Shown: piece after piece, positions 5,629 to 63,282 of the stretch
Layout: each line of letters begins with the position of its first letter
How positions within the stretch are numbered: position 1 is the first letter of the stretch
Sequence record: NC_101837.1
Reading direction: 5' to 3' (one strand)
Length of the DNA stretch: 64,000 nt
Origin: a phage
The notes under the pieces: model-generated
Databases searched by the model: none
The model's input: only the letters and a program-made list of their open reading frames with translations
What the model was told of the DNA's origin: nothing
Program-made: the position numbers and the translations under genes

Positions 5629-5641
5629 CACGTTTTTGATG

Positions 5642-5670
5642 TTGACATCTGTTGAGACAATTGATACGAT
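5642..5670 (+). promoter_or_regulatory. sigma70-like promoter (TTGACA-17-TACGAT), divergent from the minus-strand promoter
   Basis: -35 5642-5647, -10 5665-5670; the two -35 hexamers form an inverted repeat GTCAACA-N9-TGTTGAC (5624-5646). Confidence 0.4.
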
Positions 5671-5701
5671 TTCTTCACTTACAGAGCACGAGAGACGACT
5701 C

Positions 5702-6679
5702 ATGAATCTTGAAAAATATTATACACCAGAAGAGTTAGAGCGCTTGCTCAAAAAATATAGACGCAAACAGAATAACGCACGGAAACGAGATATAGAGTTC
5801 GACCTGTCATGGGAAGAATACCTCCTATTTGGTAAAAAACTTTTAGGGGAGGGGGTATGCGACTACACCCTTATACCTTTCGACATGCACACAGATGAAA
5901 ACGGACTGGGAAATCCTTTCTACCCATCTCTGGAGCGGATAGATGATGAAGGTCCTTACGCAATTGATAATTGTTGTGTGGTAGGGTTGAGGTGCAATGC
6001 TCTGAAAGACTGTCTGGTAGATAAAAAGACTGCAATCCTGATTAAAGACAAAACTGATCGAAAAATTGTCCAGCAGATGATGCTCCACCTGAGCGAAGAG
6101 CGTATGGAGAAATTGAAAGGTGATTATACTTTTGAAGATTTCATCTTGCAATACGGGACAGAAGAAGATAAACTAGCACTATTTGACGAAGAGGAGGAAG
6201 ATATGTCACCAATGCAGGACTTTAAAAATTTCATGGCTGATCGTGCAGCCAACAAACACATTTCAGACATCGTAAACGAGACTGTGGCAGAAGAAATTGA
6301 AGAACAGAACTCTGAAGAGGAAAAAGATCCTCAGGAGGTCGAAGAGGAGATTGCAGAAGAAGTTCCTGCACTGCCTGATGATGTTGAGATTGCTAAGGCT
6401 TACACTTTCTATTGTCAAACGTTCTACGATGCAGGTATGAAAGTTGATCTGTCGTTCAGCCAATTTAAGAGTTCGTATATTCGCAAATGCTGTGCTTTAA
6501 CTGGTGAACGTCTCGGAGCTGGACTTAAACCCCTGTTGGTGACCGACTGGAATAAAGGTTTCACTAAAGGAAACTTTATGGTAGTATCTCCAATTATGGA
6601 GAAAGCTATGACAGATCTTATGAAGACCACCCGCATGACAATGACCGAGTTGGCAGGTATTTTCAAACACGTTAAATAA
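5702..6679 (+). CDS. hypothetical protein with two repeated HNH_3-like modules and an acidic linker
   Basis: ORF track 5636..6679 begins at a TTG inside the promoter; first ATG after the promoter is 5702; repeated segments CDYTLIPFD...SLERIDDEGPYAIDNCCVVGLRCNALK and CALTGERL...LLVTDWNKGFTKGN; Glu/Asp-rich linker. Confidence 0.4.
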   Translation: MNLEKYYTPEELERLLKKYRRKQNNARKRDIEFDLSWEEYLLFGKKLLGEGVCDYTLIPFDMHTDENGLGNPFYPSLERIDDEGPYAIDNCCVVGLRCNALKDCLVDKKTAILIKDKTDRKIVQQMMLHLSEERMEKLKGDYTFEDFILQYGTEEDKLALFDEEEEDMSPMQDFKNFMADRAANKHISDIVNETVAEEIEEQNSEEEKDPQEVEEEIAEEVPALPDDVEIAKAYTFYCQTFYDAGMKVDLSFSQFKSSYIRKCCALTGERLGAGLKPLLVTDWNKGFTKGNFMVVSPIMEKAMTDLMKTTRMTMTELAGIFKHVK

Positions 6680-55271: not shown

Positions 55272-56828
55272 TTAATTTTCCATGTTGGATATGGAATTAT
55301 CTCTGGTTGATGACATCTTAGAAGTGCCGTTACCAGTGGATCCTGCAGCCATTCCATCACCAGCCCTACTGATGTCCTGGCCCAAGAGCTTCATCAGCTC
55401 TTCCTGATCCATGTCCTCGTCAAATCTTTCATCAAACCCGCCTACTTCAAGAATCTTATTAATTACTGCAGGAGTTTTTGGCAAGTAACCTACAGCACCG
55501 ATCCTCTGGACAAATTTGGAGAAGCTCTCCATGTCCACCTCTTCAATCAGACCAGGTTTCAGTTTAGGCATATCATCATCTTCAAGGATGATACCATTCA
55601 ATGCCAGAAGCTGTGGAATAAGATCCTTATTGAAGGCTTCAGTGATAATATCTATATCACGCTGAACAAAATGACCATGGATAGACTGTTTTGACTCAGA
55701 CAGAGAGAAGGATCCAACGTTATCGTTACCGAGGTTAATAAAGCCAGCACCGAAACGGTCAAGAATCGCCTTCTTACGGGCATCAATCAAATCTTTAGTC
55801 GAATACTGCTTACCCATACCATCAACCCCCTTCAGGGTCATGGAGTAAAGCTCTTTACCAGACTTATCTCTATCAGACGGAAGTATAAAGAAACTTTGCT
55901 CACCACTATGGGCGTTTGCTGCGTCAAGCATAAGGTCTGCAACCATTCTCCCTTCCATTGAATTCGGGTCAATGCTGGCCTTGTTCAAAATATTGGAAGG
56001 AATTTTCAGCTCAAGCACGCCACCAAGGTCTTTGGAACAGCCAACAACCTCAAGGTTTTCAATCAGAACTTTCTCACGGAAAGATCTGTAGCAACCTATC
56101 ATCGGTGACACACCTGCAGGGTTAGATTCTGTTCCTGACAGGGTCATGAGCATAAGCTTTTTAGCAGGGATGAAAATTTCAGGCTCATTAAAGCCTTTTG
56201 AAGGCATTGCAGCAAGAGGTCCAGCCCAGCGTGCATTCTGAGTGTTTAGAAATGCATTAGGTGACTGATAAATACCTGTCAGTGTTCTACTATTCTTGTC
56301 AAAAACAAACGGCTCTGATCTGGACAGGCTGGCCTGAGGTCGGAATGCAATTTTATCAATAAGAAGCATCCCGGCATATTTACCTTCTTTCTCTCTGCGG
56401 TATACTTTCTCAAACAGTGAAAAACCATACTCGTTAAAGGTAGCTGCGCTTCTTGCAATATCTCGAAGAGTTTGTTGGTTTGCCAAATTACGCAAAGAAT
56501 ACTCTATAAGCTCGGCAGCTTTCTTAGAGTCTTCACTTTTAACATTATAAAGGATCTTAAAATCATTGAATGCTTTCGTGATGAAAACATATTTTGTATC
56601 TAAGGCAGTAGCAACTGTGGAATCACATTTCATAGTCTCCACTGTGGCAATCAGCTGAGGCCAACGCAATTCCTCAACCATCATAGATTGCGATTCTGCC
56701 ATAATTTGGGAAAGTGCGCCAGAACCGATCTCACTCATACGAACATTATGAGTTGGTGCGCCTGCGTTCCCAGATTTATTCACAGTTTTGGCTGTGGCGT
56801 TGTGTTTCCTGCGGTTCTTTTTGGACAC
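55272..56828 (-). CDS. portal protein (putative)
   Basis: 518 aa, immediately downstream of terminase large subunit; GAGGGG before ATG. Confidence 0.5.
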   Translation of the reverse strand: MSKKNRRKHNATAKTVNKSGNAGAPTHNVRMSEIGSGALSQIMAESQSMMVEELRWPQLIATVETMKCDSTVATALDTKYVFITKAFNDFKILYNVKSEDSKKAAELIEYSLRNLANQQTLRDIARSAATFNEYGFSLFEKVYRREKEGKYAGMLLIDKIAFRPQASLSRSEPFVFDKNSRTLTGIYQSPNAFLNTQNARWAGPLAAMPSKGFNEPEIFIPAKKLMLMTLSGTESNPAGVSPMIGCYRSFREKVLIENLEVVGCSKDLGGVLELKIPSNILNKASIDPNSMEGRMVADLMLDAANAHSGEQSFFILPSDRDKSGKELYSMTLKGVDGMGKQYSTKDLIDARKKAILDRFGAGFINLGNDNVGSFSLSESKQSIHGHFVQRDIDIITEAFNKDLIPQLLALNGIILEDDDMPKLKPGLIEEVDMESFSKFVQRIGAVGYLPKTPAVINKILEVGGFDERFDEDMDQEELMKLLGQDISRAGDGMAAGSTGNGTSKMSSTRDNSISNMEN

Positions 56829-56928: not shown

Positions 56929-58476
56929 TTAGATAAAACGCTTGAACATAGAAGGTGATGAGATTGATGGAATCACACAAGGAAGTGCTACCTCCTCTTT
57001 CTCCAGGAAATTAATCGCAGAAGCTACGCAGTCGGCCCAGTCGTCTTTTCTGTTAAATGTTGATCTTTCCCCGTTGAATTTTTCAAGTTCAGTCAGAAAT
57101 GCTTCCAGAGTATCAGGATGGAAACTGGATTTTACAATCCTCACCATTCCTTGTTGGGCAAGATTGGCAAAAGGTGAGAACCTTGTCAGTTTAGACTTGT
57201 TGGAAGGCATTGGGTCTTCTTCAACCCTGAACCCTTCGGCAAGCAAGGATCTGGAGGAGGTTAAGAACTCACTCTTACCTGCCTGCCCTGGGTCCACAGA
57301 GAAGACGATTATGCAATCATCACCATCGAACTGCGCCTGTTTCCTGATGATCACATCTCGTTCACCAGCCTTTTTACAGAACTTGCCTTCCAGACCTGTG
57401 GAATATCTCCCGTCATCCACGTTCTCAGGACAATAATCGCCGGACAGGTAATAAAAGCCGTCGCTATCTTTACTTACCTTAATACTGGCAGTAAAGTCAG
57501 GAAATTTATTACCGGAAGTTCTCTCGGTTCCTGCCTTATCCCATGCCCTGCAAGATACTGATCCAAGAGGTACTCTATCGGCATCACGAAGGAAAGATCT
57601 TTGAAAATAGTTTGCACCCTCAGGCTTTGCAAACCAGTTACCATGGAGAAGCTGAGCTTTTTCCAGCTCTGGTAGACCTTCGAGGAAAGCAAGGTATTCT
57701 GGGTTGTCTCTCAAACAGACAGGATTATCGAATATTGTTGCGCCTATGAACGAGAATGACAACGGTCTTGGCTTGATCTCTACACCAAGTCCGTTAACCG
57801 TGGTGTATTTCTCTATCAACTCTTCTTTAGAATCTCCCCAGATAAATTCACCGTCGCGTCGGATAAAATATCTTTTCTTACCGCATTTCTCCGGATCTGG
57901 ATACCCTTCATCGTCCAACCACCATCTAACCAGTTTGGCAAGCATGTGTTCTGAATCGGGGTTACAGCTGATAACCATTCTTGATGGATACTTTGACTGA
58001 GATCGCAGACGAGACATCAGGTAGTCTATCTGCTCCCATTCGAACTGCGTGCCCTCATCGAAGCAAACCATGGTGTACTCAAGCCCCTGATGGTTAAGCT
58101 TATCTTGTACATACTCCATATGGCAGTATTTTACAACAGCTCCCTTTTTGCTTCTATCCCACTTACCAGTGTTCGGATCAAACCGTGGAAAAATGAACTT
58201 ATGATCCTTCTCTCTGAACTTTGGCTTAATGTTTTCAGGCAGATCACTATAAATAGCTACTGCTTTAGGCCATAGTCCACCCTCACCTTCCAACTGTGGG
58301 GTTGTTCTTCGGAACATAACCACAGAGCTGTGGGGGTCATCAATAATTTTAAGTGGCATCAACTGCAAGAGGAACGACTTGCCAGACCCTGCTGCACCGC
58401 CGATTACCAAGATATCTGCATCGTTTTCGAGGATCATCTTCTGCTTTTCAGAACACGGTCCGTAAATCTTAGACAT
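56929..58476 (-). CDS. terminase large subunit
   Basis: 515 aa; Walker A VIGGAAGSGKS near N-terminus; acidic nuclease-like C-terminal half; AAGGAGAGAGG before ATG. Confidence 0.7.
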   Translation of the reverse strand: MSKIYGPCSEKQKMILENDADILVIGGAAGSGKSFLLQLMPLKIIDDPHSSVVMFRRTTPQLEGEGGLWPKAVAIYSDLPENIKPKFREKDHKFIFPRFDPNTGKWDRSKKGAVVKYCHMEYVQDKLNHQGLEYTMVCFDEGTQFEWEQIDYLMSRLRSQSKYPSRMVISCNPDSEHMLAKLVRWWLDDEGYPDPEKCGKKRYFIRRDGEFIWGDSKEELIEKYTTVNGLGVEIKPRPLSFSFIGATIFDNPVCLRDNPEYLAFLEGLPELEKAQLLHGNWFAKPEGANYFQRSFLRDADRVPLGSVSCRAWDKAGTERTSGNKFPDFTASIKVSKDSDGFYYLSGDYCPENVDDGRYSTGLEGKFCKKAGERDVIIRKQAQFDGDDCIIVFSVDPGQAGKSEFLTSSRSLLAEGFRVEEDPMPSNKSKLTRFSPFANLAQQGMVRIVKSSFHPDTLEAFLTELEKFNGERSTFNRKDDWADCVASAINFLEKEEVALPCVIPSISSPSMFKRFI

Positions 58477-58763
58477 TAACCTCTCTCCTTTGGAAACAGT
58501 GTTCTAATATAGTCTTGCAAAATGATCAATTTAGCTCTATCATTGCTACAAGACAGATTATTATCCCTCATAATGCCAGAATTCACTGCATCTGGCGCAC
58601 CTTTCTTCAAAGGCATAGCTTTAGCAGGTGGTTTCATGGCACCTTCCGGGGGTTTAACAATCAACCTTCCTACATCCGGAGGGTCAATCTTGTATTCTCT
58701 CTCAACGCTGGTTGCACACCCACATAATAACAAGCACGCAATAAACAGTGTGGCAACTCTCAT
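58476..58763 (-). CDS. o-spanin (Rz1-like outer-membrane lipoprotein)
   Basis: 95 aa; lipoprotein signal with LLLCGC lipobox, Pro-rich body; overlaps i-spanin 3-prime end. Confidence 0.5.
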   Translation of the reverse strand: MRVATLFIACLLLCGCATSVEREYKIDPPDVGRLIVKPPEGAMKPPAKAMPLKKGAPDAVNSGIMRDNNLSCSNDRAKLIILQDYIRTLFPKERG

Positions 58764-59158
58764 CGATCCTCCTGATTGATACTCTCATTATAAATATCTA
58801 TAAGCTGATCAGGAAGTGTTGACTTCTTACCTTCAGGTGATTGGAGGTAGATAATCTGCTTTTCTCTACCTGCCCTCTCAGCTATATTTAATTTATCCTG
58901 TAGATCAGAAAGGGATTTTTCAAGGTTTTTAACCTCCTCTGCGTGGCCCATTTTAATTTTGTCGGCCTGCTTTTGTTGCTGATCAAGGATCCGTTCCCAC
59001 TTCAACTCTGTTGCTAACACACCTTCTTGGTAGGCTTCATTAAGCTTAGAGTTAAACCAATACACGGCCCCAAGATAAGCTGTACCTATAGCCGCTGCAA
59101 AAACTAAACCTTTTATGATCCCTCTATACCTACTCAGCCATGTTAAACCTGAAATCAT
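58760..59158 (-). CDS. i-spanin (Rz-like)
   Basis: 132 aa; N-terminal transmembrane segment then coiled-coil region. Confidence 0.5.
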   Translation of the reverse strand: MISGLTWLSRYRGIIKGLVFAAAIGTAYLGAVYWFNSKLNEAYQEGVLATELKWERILDQQQKQADKIKMGHAEEVKNLEKSLSDLQDKLNIAERAGREKQIIYLQSPEGKKSTLPDQLIDIYNESINQEDR

Positions 59159-59263
59159 TTTAAGGCTCCAGAAACGAAAAAACCCCGCAGCTATACAGCT
59201 AACGGGGCGGGTTAAAATTGAGTAACCTAAATAGATTGAAACTAACTAAAAGGAGACTAATAC

Positions 59264-59533
59264 TTATCGAGGCACTCGGTGGATGATTCTAACAGTAACT
59301 GCGTTTTCATTCATCAAGTATGCATCTACATCTCTGTAAATATAAAACTTCTGCTCACTATCAACAACACAAGCTACCGCCCCTTCAGAGTTGTCTTCAA
59401 AAAAGACCACCACTGCATCGCAGCTGAGTTCATGATATGACTCTCGAAGATTTACAGCCAGAGGATTGAAATCGTCACGAAAATCTACGGTATGGGTTGG
59501 ATTTACACGCTCTACAATTTTAAGTGTATACAT
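59264..59533 (-). CDS. hypothetical protein
   Basis: 89-aa ORF followed by hairpin/U-tract at ~59170-59210. Confidence 0.35.
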   Translation of the reverse strand: MYTLKIVERVNPTHTVDFRDDFNPLAVNLRESYHELSCDAVVVFFEDNSEGAVACVVDSEQKFYIYRDVDAYLMNENAVTVRIIHRVPR

Positions 59534-59579: not shown

Positions 59580-59656
59580 TGGTCTCCACGGAGTGATTCG
59601 AACACTCGACCTCCTGATCCCAAATCAGGCGCTCTACCAAGCTGAGCTACGCGGAG
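59580..59656 (-). tRNA. tRNA-Pro (anticodon UGG), CCA encoded
   Basis: by-eye cloverleaf: acceptor CUCCGCG/CGUGGAG (C1-G72), D-stem GCUC/GAGC, anticodon loop UUUGGGA, T-arm GAGUG-UUCGAAU-CACUC. Confidence 0.75.
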
Positions 59657-59667
59657 TATTTACTATT

Positions 59668-59742
59668 TGGTGGCCCTGGGTGGAATTGAACCACCGTCTG
59701 GCGATTATGAGTCGCTTGCTTGAACCTTCCAGCTACAGGGCC
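59668..59742 (-). tRNA. tRNA-Met or Ile2 (anticodon CAU), CCA encoded
   Basis: acceptor GGCCCUG/CAGGGCC, anticodon loop CUCAUAA, T-arm GGUGG-UUCAAUU-CCACC; D-stem has one mismatch. Confidence 0.65.
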
Positions 59743-59743
59743 T

Positions 59744-59819
59744 TGGTGCTGATGGCAGGACTTGAACCTACAACCTATTGATTACAAATCAATTGCACTA
59801 CCGATTGTGCTACATCAGC
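59744..59819 (-). tRNA. tRNA-Thr (anticodon UGU), CCA encoded
   Basis: acceptor GCUGAUG/CAUCAGC, D-stem GCAC/GUGC, anticodon stem AUUGA/UCAAU, loop UUUGUAA, T-loop UUCAAGU. Confidence 0.8.
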
Positions 59820-59824
59820 AAAAA

Positions 59825-59923
59825 GGTGCTAGGCGATGGAATCGAACCACCTATGTATTCAACGACTACCTCGTCTATTTTCAGGATTAAAAATCCTCGC
59901 CCTTGCCAAAGGGCTTACCTAGC
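59825..59923 (-). tRNA. atypical tRNA-like gene (possible anticodon UUU; ~30-nt extra arm)
   Basis: canonical T-arm GGUGG-UUCGAUU-CCAUC and 7-bp acceptor GCUAGGU/GCCUAGC, D-arm GCCC-UUUGGCAA-GGGC, anticodon region AGGAUUUUUAAUCCU, but ~97 nt long. Confidence 0.4.
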
Positions 59924-60021
59924 TCAGTATGTTGACCATGTTGCTAGTCGGCGATGACGACTGTAACATTTGATAATCCGGTTCTGCTTCCGGCTTTCGC
60001 TTAATTACAAGGTCAACAATG

Positions 60022-60112
60022 TGGCGGAGAGTAATGGAATCGAACCATCATCGAGTCATCCTCAACGGGACGGTTTTCAAGACCGCTTGAGCACCATTGC
60101 TCCCTACCCTCC
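60022..60112 (-). tRNA. tRNA-Ser (anticodon UGA), type II, CCA encoded
   Basis: acceptor GGAGGGU/ACUCUCC, anticodon arm GCGGU-CUUGAAA-ACCGU, extra arm UUGAG-GAUGA-CUCGA, T-loop UUCGAUU; D-arm spacing non-canonical in my parse. Confidence 0.55.
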
Positions 60113-60226
60113 TTTATAAATTATACTGATAATGACACTGATTTTCGAGCAGTTAGTGACTAGTATAAACGACGATAAATATCAATGCCATTATCTGTAT
60201 TATTTATGCATCTAAAAATATAAATT

Positions 60227-60313
60227 TGGTGGGGAGTGGTGGAGTCGAACCACCCGAGTCGCAATGACAATAGATTTACAGTCTACACCGCTACCTCTAC
60301 GGGATAACTCCCC
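60227..60313 (-). tRNA. tRNA-Tyr (anticodon GUA), type II, CCA encoded
   Basis: acceptor GGGGAGU/ACUCCCC, anticodon arm GUAGA-CUGUAAA-UCUAU, T-arm GGUGG-UUCGACU-CCACC; D-arm spacing non-canonical. Confidence 0.6.
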
Positions 60314-60317
60314 AATT

Positions 60318-60392
60318 TGGCACCCCGTACTGGACTCGAACCAGTGTCAACGGCTTAGAAGGCCGCTGCTTTATCCACTAAGCTAACAGGGC
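60318..60392 (-). tRNA. tRNA-Arg (anticodon UCU), CCA encoded
   Basis: acceptor GCCCUGU/ACGGGGU, D-arm GCUU-AGUGGAUA-AAGC, anticodon arm GCGGC-CUUCUAA-GCCGU, T-arm ACUGG-UUCGAGU-CCAGU. Confidence 0.7.
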
Positions 60393-60492: not shown

Positions 60493-60828
60493 CTATTTGC
60501 TAACAGGCTGTATTTCTGTAGTAAATGGCATAAAAGGTGCTGGTTTTTCAGCCTCTTCCACTACCACCTCTTCCTCTTCACCAAACATCTCATCATATTC
60601 TTCCTGCATTCGGTCTGCCTTATCAAGAACATACTCTGCAATGCTTTGACGAATATTTTGTTTGGTTTTCGGGTCCAACATCAGCTCTCTTAAAACTTTG
60701 TGAGCTTCTGGAACCATCGCTATAAAAGATTCCTTCATATCAAGGATGTTCTTCTCTAGCTGAATGGCGTTGGACTCCTCTTTCAGAGGTCTGCCTCTAC
60801 GGCGACGCTTTTTAGTTGTATCCGCCAT
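60493..60828 (-). CDS. AT-hook-containing DNA-binding protein
   Basis: ORF track 60493..60948; ATG 60826-60828 (MADTTKKRRRRGRPLK...) preceded by GGAGGAAAC and by a consensus promoter; upstream open frame starts at TTG inside that promoter. Confidence 0.45.
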   Translation of the reverse strand: MADTTKKRRRRGRPLKEESNAIQLEKNILDMKESFIAMVPEAHKVLRELMLDPKTKQNIRQSIAEYVLDKADRMQEEYDEMFGEEEEVVVEEAEKPAPFMPFTTEIQPVSK

Positions 60829-60856: not shown

Positions 60857-60885
60857 ATTTTATCATAGCAAATACTGATTGTCAA
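60857..60885 (-). promoter_or_regulatory. sigma70-like promoter (TTGACA-17-TAAAAT)
   Basis: -35 at 60880-60885 and -10 at 60857-62 read on minus strand, 17-bp spacer, ~25 nt upstream of ATG 60828. Confidence 0.5.
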
Positions 60886-62271: not shown

Positions 62272-62640
62272 AGCTGCCTCCTCTTCAAGTTATAGAAAAA
62301 CTCACTGTATCGCTTTGTAACGAGCTTTTCTATCAAACTGGTGCGATTGCATTACCTGGTATAGTTTATATAGCTGTGGAGCGATTTAGGGGCCTTCTTG
62401 TCAGTTTCCACACATAAACTTCATCCAAGCTCGCGCGGGAGACTCTCAACCGACTCCTTACGGCGCTGGCAAGCTTTCGTCGGTGGTCCACATCAGTGCT
62501 CGGCCTTTGGCCTGCGCTATCGCTTCGCTCCCACACATGTTAACAGACCTGCATGTATGAACTTCTGTTATTGTGTGCACCAAGGAGGCCCGGCATCTCG
62601 CCCCTCGTAGGCGAGTGCCAATGAAGGGCCGACACTGCCC

Positions 62641-62775
62641 ATAGTAAGTAATAAATTTAAAACATGGTACTTAGGATCTAGTATATTCTACATAAGTTAA
62701 GTATATGTACTTAGTACCATAAGTACTAGATCTTTTATTTTTTATTATTTAGTTATTTTAGTTATATTCTTTATG
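62641..62775. other. AT-rich region with nested inverted repeats (candidate DNA-unwinding element)
   Basis: inverted repeats TAGTAC-N5-GTACTA (62712-62728), GTACTTAGTAC; long A/T runs 62731-62770. Confidence 0.35.
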
Positions 62776-62856
62776 TGTCCGTATCACGGACAGTTAGTGT
62801 CCGTATTACGGGCAGATGTGTCCGCGTGACGGACAGTAGTGTCCGTATCACGGACA
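62776..62856. repeat. four tandem 17-bp palindromes TGTCCGTnnnACGGACA at 21-22 bp spacing (iteron/operator array)
   Basis: copies at 62776, 62798, 62819, 62840; copies 1 and 4 identical, 2 and 3 one mismatch each; degenerate half-site at 62865-62880. Confidence 0.6.
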
Positions 62857-62931
62857 GTTAATAGTATCCGTTCCATGACGAACATAAAACATACGAATCC
62901 TTATAGTACAGATATTTAAGTTTTTACTGGT

Positions 62932-63282
62932 CTAACCAGTTGTTGACATCCGAATAACTTCTTCTGGTGGCAAAACTTTGGAAAATGTGCATCTTTTACC
63001 TCTCCCTTGTGTGGATGTTTCAACCACTCCTGCACATTCTAAAGTTTTAACGCACGCTGCTGCTTTTGTTTTCTTTATCCCAACATCTGCTGCAATTTTC
63101 CTTGTGCTTGGTGTGAAGCGTGAATTTCCTCCAAGCTTATACCAGTTGTGCAGGTAGCAGTATACGATCTTGTCATACAAGTCAAGAACAACAACCTCTC
63201 CAGTTGTGTCATTCAAAACTTTTGACATAGATAGTATTTCAAGGGGGACTTTAAGATATAGCAGCTTATCCCCATCTTTCAT
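62932..63282 (-). CDS. putative DNA-binding protein (winged-helix/HTH-like)
   Basis: 116 aa; segment STRKIAADVGIKKTKAAACVKTLECAGVVE resembles HTH recognition region; gene directly precedes the palindrome array. Confidence 0.35.
   Translation of the reverse strand: MKDGDKLLYLKVPLEILSMSKVLNDTTGEVVVLDLYDKIVYCYLHNWYKLGGNSRFTPSTRKIAADVGIKKTKAAACVKTLECAGVVETSTQGRGKRCTFSKVLPPEEVIRMSTTG

Follow-up and report, generated by a model that had tools for sequence, protein, structure and literature searches.

A divergent candidate for the missing small terminase subunit of an rV5-like coliphage, encoded apart from the large subunit

Where is the small terminase subunit (TerS) of a phage whose large subunit (TerL) gene is preceded by lysis genes? 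The question is raised by positions 56,929 to 59,158 of a 64,000-nucleotide stretch of phage DNA (sequence record NC_101837.1; the whole stretch is referred to here as the window), in which the TerL gene directly follows a pair of spanin genes. Our analysis suggests that the missing TerS is probably the 111-amino acid (aa) AT-hook protein encoded at 60493-60828, a divergent protein that would have been displaced to a position ~2 kb upstream of TerL by insertions. Judged by its sequence, the window belongs to a Vequintavirus, an rV5-like coliphage and myovirus with a genome of ~137 kb: the 8 kb around the locus share 99.4% identity with Escherichia phage PMBT16 and 98-99% with many rV5-like phages. 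Genes lie on the minus strand from ~64 kb down to ~12.6 kb of the window, and in the late module of this phage the region is the end concerned with packaging.

The gene slot upstream of TerL

The genes at the locus itself are as follows.

58760..59158, minus strand: i-spanin (inner-membrane), 132 aa; phrog_4297 'Rz-like spanin', E = 1.1e-47; annotated as i-spanin in phage isim
58476..58763, minus strand: o-spanin (outer-membrane lipoprotein), 95 aa; phrog_1267 'Rz-like spanin', E = 1.8e-22; annotated as o-spanin in phage isim
56929..58476, minus strand: TerL, 515 aa, T4-type ATPase plus RNaseH-like nuclease; PF03237, PF17289, phrog_979
55272..56828, minus strand: portal protein, directly downstream of TerL, at the start of the head morphogenesis module; PF06074 Portal_Mu, E = 2.5e-11; phrog_113, E = 1.9e-88

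A sequence-only reading of this DNA had held that no recognisable TerS lies beside TerL, and that the slot is filled by an overlapping spanin pair comprising a Pro-rich protein with a lipobox and a coiled-coil protein with a transmembrane (TM) segment. Both statements were borne out with exact coordinates, by the PHROG and Pfam matches of these genes and by the lack of a match to any TerS family, the overlap of the spanin genes amounting to merely 4 nt (ATGA) in the order i then o. The hydropathy maximum of the i-spanin falls at around residues 14-32, corresponding to a single N-terminal TM segment that is followed by a charged, helical periplasmic part; the o-spanin (MRVATLFIACLLLCGC) possesses a signal peptide, an LCGC lipobox (Cys16), a Pro-rich composition (9.5%) and a further cysteine, Cys72. 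Its stop codon overlaps the TerL start codon (TAATG), with a good Shine-Dalgarno (SD) sequence, AAGGAGAG, in front, and these two overlaps together with the SD therefore define the spanins and TerL as one translationally coupled unit. Since the pair sits directly upstream of TerL, no TerS gene adjoins the latter, and homology searches likewise returned no clear TerS homologue at that position.

Identical i- and o-spanin annotations are present in isim and also in the more distant phi92/phAPEC8-like phages PaulScherrer and Nernie. As in lambda Rz/Rz1 and T4 PseT.3/PseT.2, the pair consists of a type II inner-membrane coiled-coil protein and a small Pro-rich outer-membrane lipoprotein encoded by adjoining, slightly overlapping genes. 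It differs from these two-component spanins in lying outside any lysis cassette and in being merged into the TerL operon, and from lambda in particular in its short overlap, Rz1 being embedded within Rz. Linkage to a holin or endolysin gene is thus replaced by linkage to terL, an arrangement that is ordinary in itself and had been annotated before. A 166-aa ORF (open reading frame) at 942-1442 on the minus strand of the window was found to match endolysin PHROGs (phrog_938, 1.7e-27), distant from the spanins, and the endolysin gene of isim is on the opposite strand, ~5 kb outside the window at its right end.

TerL matches PF03237 Terminase_6N (6e-20), PF17289 Terminase_6C (5e-6) and phrog_979 (3e-208), and combines an ATPase domain bearing a Walker A motif (GGAAGSGKS), an RNaseH-like nuclease and a portal gene directly downstream, as is characteristic of T4-type TerL. 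Its gene is uninterrupted in the window, and the product is 100% identical to the exons of rV5 TerL and 34% identical to TerL of Vibrio phage ICP1. The terL gene of rV5 carries introns and an HNH gene (PMC3606486), and in several relatives terL was observed in 2-3 pieces. At its N-terminus the phrog_979 profile is ~146 positions longer than the window TerL because of a mini-intein in Walker A, which in the 694-aa, phapecoctavirus-type TerL of Nernie (L009, 9350-11434) begins with CVSAETEY, ends with HIFVTGN and interrupts the Walker A loop between GGAAG and SGKS. A fusion of TerS to the N-terminus of TerL in these relatives was ruled out, the extra segment being this mini-intein.

Profile searches extended over ~50 window ORFs in total (Pfam, PHROGs and NCBIfam) and revealed no TerS. 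The 55.2-63.3 kb interval contributed 10 ORFs, which were compared with Pfam (E <= 0.1) and PHROGs (E <= 0.01), and another 30 from the remainder of the window were compared with PHROGs; no TerS family was matched by any of them, or in the NCBIfam search. Nor does a TerS annotation appear in the examined stretches of the PMBT16, isim and Alma records. Individual ORFs were also considered and rejected: a 192-aa ORF had no PDB match, an 89-aa ORF (59264-59533) had no TerS or relevant PDB similarity, and a 116-aa winged helix-turn-helix (wHTH) ORF resembles RepA, CodY and DUF6945 instead.

The lack of an annotated TerS is not peculiar to the window but represents an annotation gap already reported for related phages (PMC9769974, PMC7289586, PMC11417361). 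Within the Vequintavirinae, the authors describing Certrevirus P7_Pc did not find a TerS (PMC9769974); for Alteromonas phage V22, whose terminase was grouped with Vequintavirinae and Ounavirinae clades, none was identified and an alternative mechanism was proposed, with Felix O1 and P100 cited as further cases (PMC7289586); and the TerS of ICP1 is stated to be unidentified (PMC11417361). Such reports, together with the failure of the scanned window ORFs to match any standard TerS family, favour the explanation that there is no TerS at all, and that packaging is started by TerL, either unaided or in combination with a host factor or some unrelated protein of the phage, a possibility raised for Felix O1, P100, V22 and phi29-like systems. 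However, ICP1, which has a related TerL, possesses a defined pac region and headful packaging, normally needing a recognition subunit (PMC11417361), and a TerS-like candidate is now visible in the window, so that packaging without a TerS appears highly unlikely.

The AT-hook protein and its TerS likeness

The candidate gene and the promoter-like site in front of it are as follows.

60493..60828, minus strand: candidate TerS, 111 aa, starting MADTTKKRRRRGRPLK...; phrog_3330, E = 2e-46; good SD
60857..60885, minus strand: sigma70-like promoter, TTGACA-17-TAAAAT with TG, 11/12; best match in 56.5-64 kb, by consensus match only

The sequence-only reading had named this AT-hook protein as one TerS candidate and had supposed that TerS is either located elsewhere or highly divergent. 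We found it to be the sole window ORF with any TerS signal, and both suppositions apply to this one gene. Support for the candidate derives from a profile-profile match of 87-88% probability, top fold matches that are all TerS, relatives in which the gene abuts TerL, and a Late homologue in ICP1, each of which is described below.

The protein is laid out as a disordered basic arm, KKRRRRGRP (residues 1-15), followed by a helical hairpin and an acidic linker, with a conserved PFTT[ED]I motif at the C-terminus. Other members of phrog_3330 include gp135 of ICP1 (1.6e-35) and a 96-aa ORF of Nernie (8.6e-34). Alignment of the Vequintavirinae sequences revealed GRPLKEESNAIQL-KN and the C-terminal PF[TS]T[ED]I to be invariant or nearly so, with a variable acidic linker between them, and across 25 diverse family members G-R-P is the sole invariant element, K/R-rich flanks surrounding the RGRP. 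Despite this RGRP core, Pfam AT_hook was not reported for the window protein. The gene occurs in 225 records, ~60 of which were sampled; there it is labelled 'hypothetical protein', once 'putative regulatory protein' (JLBYU08) and once 'RNA ligase', and never TerS. The literature searched contained no TerS assignment in Vequintavirinae and no function for ICP1 gp135. The TerS assignment therefore appears to be new, the reports of a missing TerS and the spanin annotation being already in the literature and GenBank.

Comparison of the family with the TerS family of phage PaP3 (PF20901) using hhalign returned a probability of 86.9-88.3% (E 3-4e-6) over 42 columns, pairing window residues 31-72 with PaP3 TerS residues 66-107, which we take to be the ring-forming core of the latter. 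Reversed or column-shuffled control alignments yielded at most 0.7% probability (E at least 0.085). The same PaP3 segment was matched by sub-alignments restricted to Vequintavirinae (52%), to distant members (86%) and to distant members minus the two most TerS-like (82%); an intermediate subgroup alone gave 3% only. When family profiles were searched against 177,635 PDB sequences with HMMER, NV1 and PaP3 TerS ranked second and third at a non-significant E of ~0.4 (NV1, 0.41). Only 23 matches were obtained among 1.84 billion representative proteins. One, P0047 (207 aa; E = 4e-4), has extra N-terminal sequence that is helix-turn-helix (HTH)-like by eye, and itself matches phrog_2538 'terminase small subunit' (5e-9), NV1 TerS (PDB 7JOQ; 1.4e-3) and PaP3 TerS (0.026). 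At the level of sequence similarity, P0047 is a transitive link between the family and the TerS of phrog_2538, and several family members also display weak secondary matches to TerS PHROGs. P0047 sits on a 1.3-kb contig with an uninformative neighbourhood.

An AlphaFold2 (AF2) model built from a 30-sequence alignment predicted two helices, at residues 16-51 and 57-82, with a predicted local distance difference test score of ~90, the N- and C-terminal parts being disordered. Foldseek searches of the PDB with this model placed NV1 or PaP3 TerS in all of the top nine positions (prob 0.77-0.99), with root-mean-square deviations (rmsd) of 1.7-2.2 A over 54 columns for most, and at E values of 0.18-1.0, as expected for a simple hairpin. 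The predicted hairpin would provide the helical oligomerisation core of a TerS, for which, being a simple fold, it offers weak support. Matches in BFVD were weak, and the named ones among them were enriched for TerS and DUF5681 proteins.

Gene order in metagenomic contigs that carry distant family members is decisive as regards position and places the family still closer to TerL. In L013, a contig of 110 kb, the end of the family gene directly adjoins the TerL start (0 nt between them) and its last codons (...NFGG and stop) form the TerL SD (GGAGG); L015 shows the same abutting arrangement. The distance between the two genes increases to 350 nt in L018 and to 2 kb in L016 and L017; L023 carries the AT-hook gene, i-spanin (with TM segment), o-spanin (lipobox VVGC) and TerL in that sequence, and in L021 the family gene is followed by 14 tRNAs. 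The TerLs of these contigs share 44-58% identity with the window TerL and have the same Portal_Mu and phiTE-type head genes downstream. From these arrangements, the simplest history therefore runs from terS-terL to terS-spanins-terL and, in Vequintavirus, to terS-tRNAs-ORF-spanins-terL.

The family member in ICP1, gp135 (124 aa), is encoded 3.4 kb upstream of terL beside the holin gene, and matches the window protein in its layout, a KRGRGRP arm being followed by a helical central part, an acidic linker and a short tail; in a pairwise BLASTP comparison the two aligned at E = 7e-5. BLASTP of the ICP1 loci against the window otherwise matched structural genes only. RNA-seq of ICP1 classifies gp135 as Late, like gp136-139 (the holin/antiholin cluster) and terL, and gp131-134 as Early (PMC7567579 Table S1). 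The latter four genes, directly upstream of terL, were rejected as TerS, being Early genes, with gp131 a TerL fragment. More precisely, gp131 (L005, 5945-6337) matches positions 219-300 of phrog_979 (E = 2.4e-5) and probably represents a piece or an exon of a terL interrupted by the homing endonuclease gene tcgB, though it is listed as Early. The TerS of ICP1 could be gp135.

The elements between the candidate gene and the spanins bear on how this likeness is to be read.

59580..60392, minus strand: array of seven tRNA genes, by ARAGORN Pro, Met, Thr, a tRNA with an odd anticodon loop, Ser, Tyr and Arg
59264..59533, minus strand: acidic 89-aa ORF with no assigned function; phrog_8729
59177..59211, minus strand: imperfect GC-rich hairpin plus T6, terminator-like; read from the sequence, with a terminator annotation in phage Alma

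Read downwards from 63.3 kb, the minus strand carries a 116-aa winged-helix gene, a 660-bp non-coding region, ORFs of 192, 69 and 80 aa, the AT-hook ORF, the seven tRNAs, the 89-aa ORF, i-spanin, o-spanin, TerL, portal, prohead protease and scaffold genes. The tRNA array, also annotated in isim and Alma, thus stands between the TerS candidate and the spanin-TerL operon, and these tRNAs, the 89-aa ORF, the terminator-like hairpin and the spanins together separate the candidate gene from TerL by ~2 kb. The hairpin, ~20 nt upstream of the i-spanin start, divides the tRNA/89-aa unit from the operon; a simple scan missed it. At the other end of this unit the promoter-like site, 29 nt upstream of the candidate's start, would be expected from its consensus match to drive both the candidate gene and the tRNA array. 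Within the array, ARAGORN assigned no amino acid identity to a 99-nt tRNA at 59825-59923 on the minus strand, which has a 4-base 'anticodon', atcc, is listed as tRNA-Lys or tRNA-OTHER in other records, and may be intron-bearing or degenerate. An ORF equal in length to the 89-aa ORF (270 nt) lies just past the tRNA array of Nernie, the two being compared by length and position alone.

Such an arrangement also accommodates a different role for the AT-hook protein, namely that of a small DNA-binding regulator or nucleoid-associated factor, active in late transcription or genome organisation, with the true TerS lying outside the window or being too divergent. AT-hook motifs are characteristic of DNA-binding proteins with architectural or regulatory roles, and the regulatory label in the JLBYU08 record, the near-consensus promoter common to the gene and the tRNAs, the hairpin before the spanin-TerL operon, the absence of a direct TerS model match and the restriction of TerS similarity to one helical hairpin all agree with that role. 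We nevertheless judge it unlikely: the profile-profile match to PaP3 TerS has clean negative controls, TerS structures fill the top fold matches, L013 and L015 show translational coupling of the family gene to TerL, gp135 of ICP1 is Late, and the family co-occurs with the TerL/Portal_Mu module in every examined contig long enough to show its neighbourhood.

Several of these observations weigh against identification of the AT-hook protein as TerS, and are gathered here with others of the same direction. At the thresholds applied, none of Pfam, PHROGs and NCBIfam contained a TerS model that the window protein matches directly, and its HMMER and Foldseek E values to solved TerS structures (0.2-1) are non-significant alone. 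The matched element, a helical hairpin of 42 residues, has a simple fold that is easily matched by chance; moreover, the Foldseek score also uses sequence, so that the profile and fold evidence are not independent. Synteny alone is no proof of function, the spanins being syntenic with TerL as well. The possession by the gene, with the tRNAs, of its own strong sigma70-like promoter, and of a terminator-like hairpin before TerL, would also suit an earlier-expressed regulator, although a similar promoter-like site precedes the portal gene and promoter type is therefore no guide to timing. From both sequence and AF2 model, an HTH domain is absent. Classical HTH domains are not universal among TerS (T4 gp16 and HK97), and their lack lowers the likelihood of TerS membership without excluding it. 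The ORF scan took in ~50 ORFs of the 64-kb window, from a genome of ~137 kb. Finally, ring formation, DNA binding and TerL binding by the candidate are attributed throughout by analogy.

The winged-helix gene and a possible packaging site

A further candidate for the recognition subunit, with a possible packaging site beside it, is located at the upstream end of the region.

62932-63282, minus strand: 116-aa wHTH gene; best PHROGs 'replication initiation protein'
62272-62931: 660-bp non-coding region, directly downstream of the 116-aa winged-helix gene

The non-coding region includes four tandem units of 21-22 bp at 62775-62860, each with the palindrome GTCCGT-ATC-ACGGAC, and short T-rich repeats at 62733-62765 form an AT-rich tract preceding this palindromic array. 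It may be proposed that the 116-aa protein is the recognition subunit and that these four 21-bp palindromic repeats are pac. The protein is a clear DNA binder by family (PF13730 HTH_36, 2e-5; DUF6945, 4e-6; PDB 4RO3, 3e-6), its gene adjoins the tandem palindromes, and it has a weak match to phrog_9088, the family to which ICP1 gp4 belongs, the gp4 gene lying shortly downstream of the pac-containing gp1/gp2 intergenic region. Yet its best annotated relatives are replication initiators and wHTH proteins of the DnaD/RepA-like type (phrog_12838, 5e-80; phrog_8102, 428 and 270; RepA PDB matches), and iterons beside an AT-rich tract resemble an origin or operator, which is what the array looks like. 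Given further that the protein has neither TerS similarity nor an oligomerisation hairpin, and was not seen beside TerL in related contigs, its identification as the recognition subunit is extremely improbable. The array region (62272-62931) itself could be relevant to packaging, in view of the position of phrog_9088/ICP1 gp4 beside the ICP1 pac region.

With respect to the AT-hook gene, a search for repeats that might mark a pac site nearby gave nothing beyond repeats derived from the tRNAs and, at 62.8 kb, the 21-bp array. Reports on genome ends, and with them on packaging mode, disagree within the subfamily, rV5 and bov10K2 being described as 'circularly permuted', Mydovirus KPP-1 as having a 514-bp direct terminal repeat (DTR) and BME3 a 342-bp DTR.

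Two further observations concern the window and its relatives. At 5636-6679 on the plus strand, a 347-aa ORF matches an HNH endonuclease family (1e-110) and, more weakly, 'decoy of host sigma70 / Srd anti-sigma' families. Also, ~18-24 unannotated MG0656xx 'Campylobacter phage' records (host C. jejuni) share 98.6-99.3% identity with rV5-like coliphages across the region, and their host labels are probably wrong or the result of contamination.

Relation to known small subunits and implications

Among solved TerS, those of the Bruynoghevirus phages PaP3 and NV1 (PF20901; PDB 6W7T and 7JOQ) most closely resemble the candidate: the hairpin at residues 31-72 corresponds to residues 66-107 of PaP3 TerS (Foldseek rmsd ~1.8 A), and both proteins have a flexible, acidic C-terminal part. 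The order of genes in PaP3 (tRNAs, terS, endolysin, terL) is also reminiscent of the window, and the endolysin between its terminase genes therefore provides a precedent for their separation by a lysis gene. However, PaP3 TerS is longer (152 versus 111 aa), and its N-terminal part of ~65 residues, presumably an HTH DNA-binding domain, is replaced in the window protein by a 15-residue RGRP arm; the TerL of PaP3 is P22-like according to its record, whereas that of the window is T4-type Terminase_6N; and sequence similarity between the two TerS proteins is visible only from profile to profile. On these sequence comparisons, the candidate is most likely a minimal TerS-like protein with an AT-hook arm instead of an HTH domain.

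With gp135 of ICP1 and the other phrog_3330 proteins of Stephanstirmvirinae (for example, Nernie), Vequintavirinae and metagenomic phages, the candidate shares the RGRP arm, two helices, acidic linker and short hydrophobic C-terminal motif, and its gene, like theirs, invariably precedes a related TerL gene on the same strand. The distance varies among them, from 0 nt to 3.4 kb, and in ICP1 early genes and a divergent gene pair intervene between gp135 and terL. We lean, if less firmly than for the window protein itself, towards phrog_3330 as the missing TerS of the rV5/phi92/ICP1 group, a minimal hairpin-ring type with AT-hook arms and a C-terminal peptide that would recruit TerL.

A comparable architecture was found in DUF5681 (PF18932) proteins of Felix O1-like phages and in phrog_3900 of Pakpunavirus, which are small proteins whose N-terminal basic G-x-P-x-GRP motif is followed by a helical central part, an acidic linker and, at the C-terminus, a short hydrophobic motif, and which are encoded upstream of a tRNA array preceding a related TerL. 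They differ in that neither the window family nor PaP3 TerS shows significant sequence or profile similarity to them (hhalign <1%), the resemblance being in architecture and position only. Uniting them with phrog_3330 was thus rejected, and the claim is therefore restricted to phrog_3330 and not extended to the whole TerL clade. A protein of ~470 aa (DUF2828/DUF7788) is encoded directly upstream of the AT-hook gene in L023 (2494-4480), and in the Felix O1-like phage 3HA14 a 471-aa ORF lies directly downstream of the DUF5681 gene (L008, 2283-4143). Likened by size and place, these possibly represent a further neighbour common to two TerS-position gene families.

If the AT-hook protein is TerS, the ancestral state would be one in which terS abuts TerL, an arrangement persisting in related metagenomic phages; in the window lineage the spanin pair, the 89-aa ORF and the seven-tRNA array may subsequently have been inserted between the two genes, moving terS ~2 kb upstream. 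By analogy with TerS of the PaP3/NV1 type, the hairpin of two long helices might build a ring oligomer, the N-terminal RGRP arms, one per subunit, replacing HTH domains and contacting the AT-rich minor groove at the packaging start region. The flexible acidic linker could then offer the C-terminal PFTT[ED]I peptide to TerL for recruitment or activation, leading to the first cut and headful packaging.

TerS-independent packaging has been proposed by some authors. The availability of a concrete, simple candidate makes questions about TerS in these phages directly testable. The candidate bears on how phages of the therapeutic type recognise their own DNA, on how the PLE satellite redirects the ICP1 packaging motor, and on whether an AT-hook arm can stand in for an HTH domain in a terminase ring. 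Were the assignment true, annotation would be corrected in >200 deposited genomes, the group would acquire a natural genome start point, and the ICP1-PLE field would gain the TerS that it reports as lacking.

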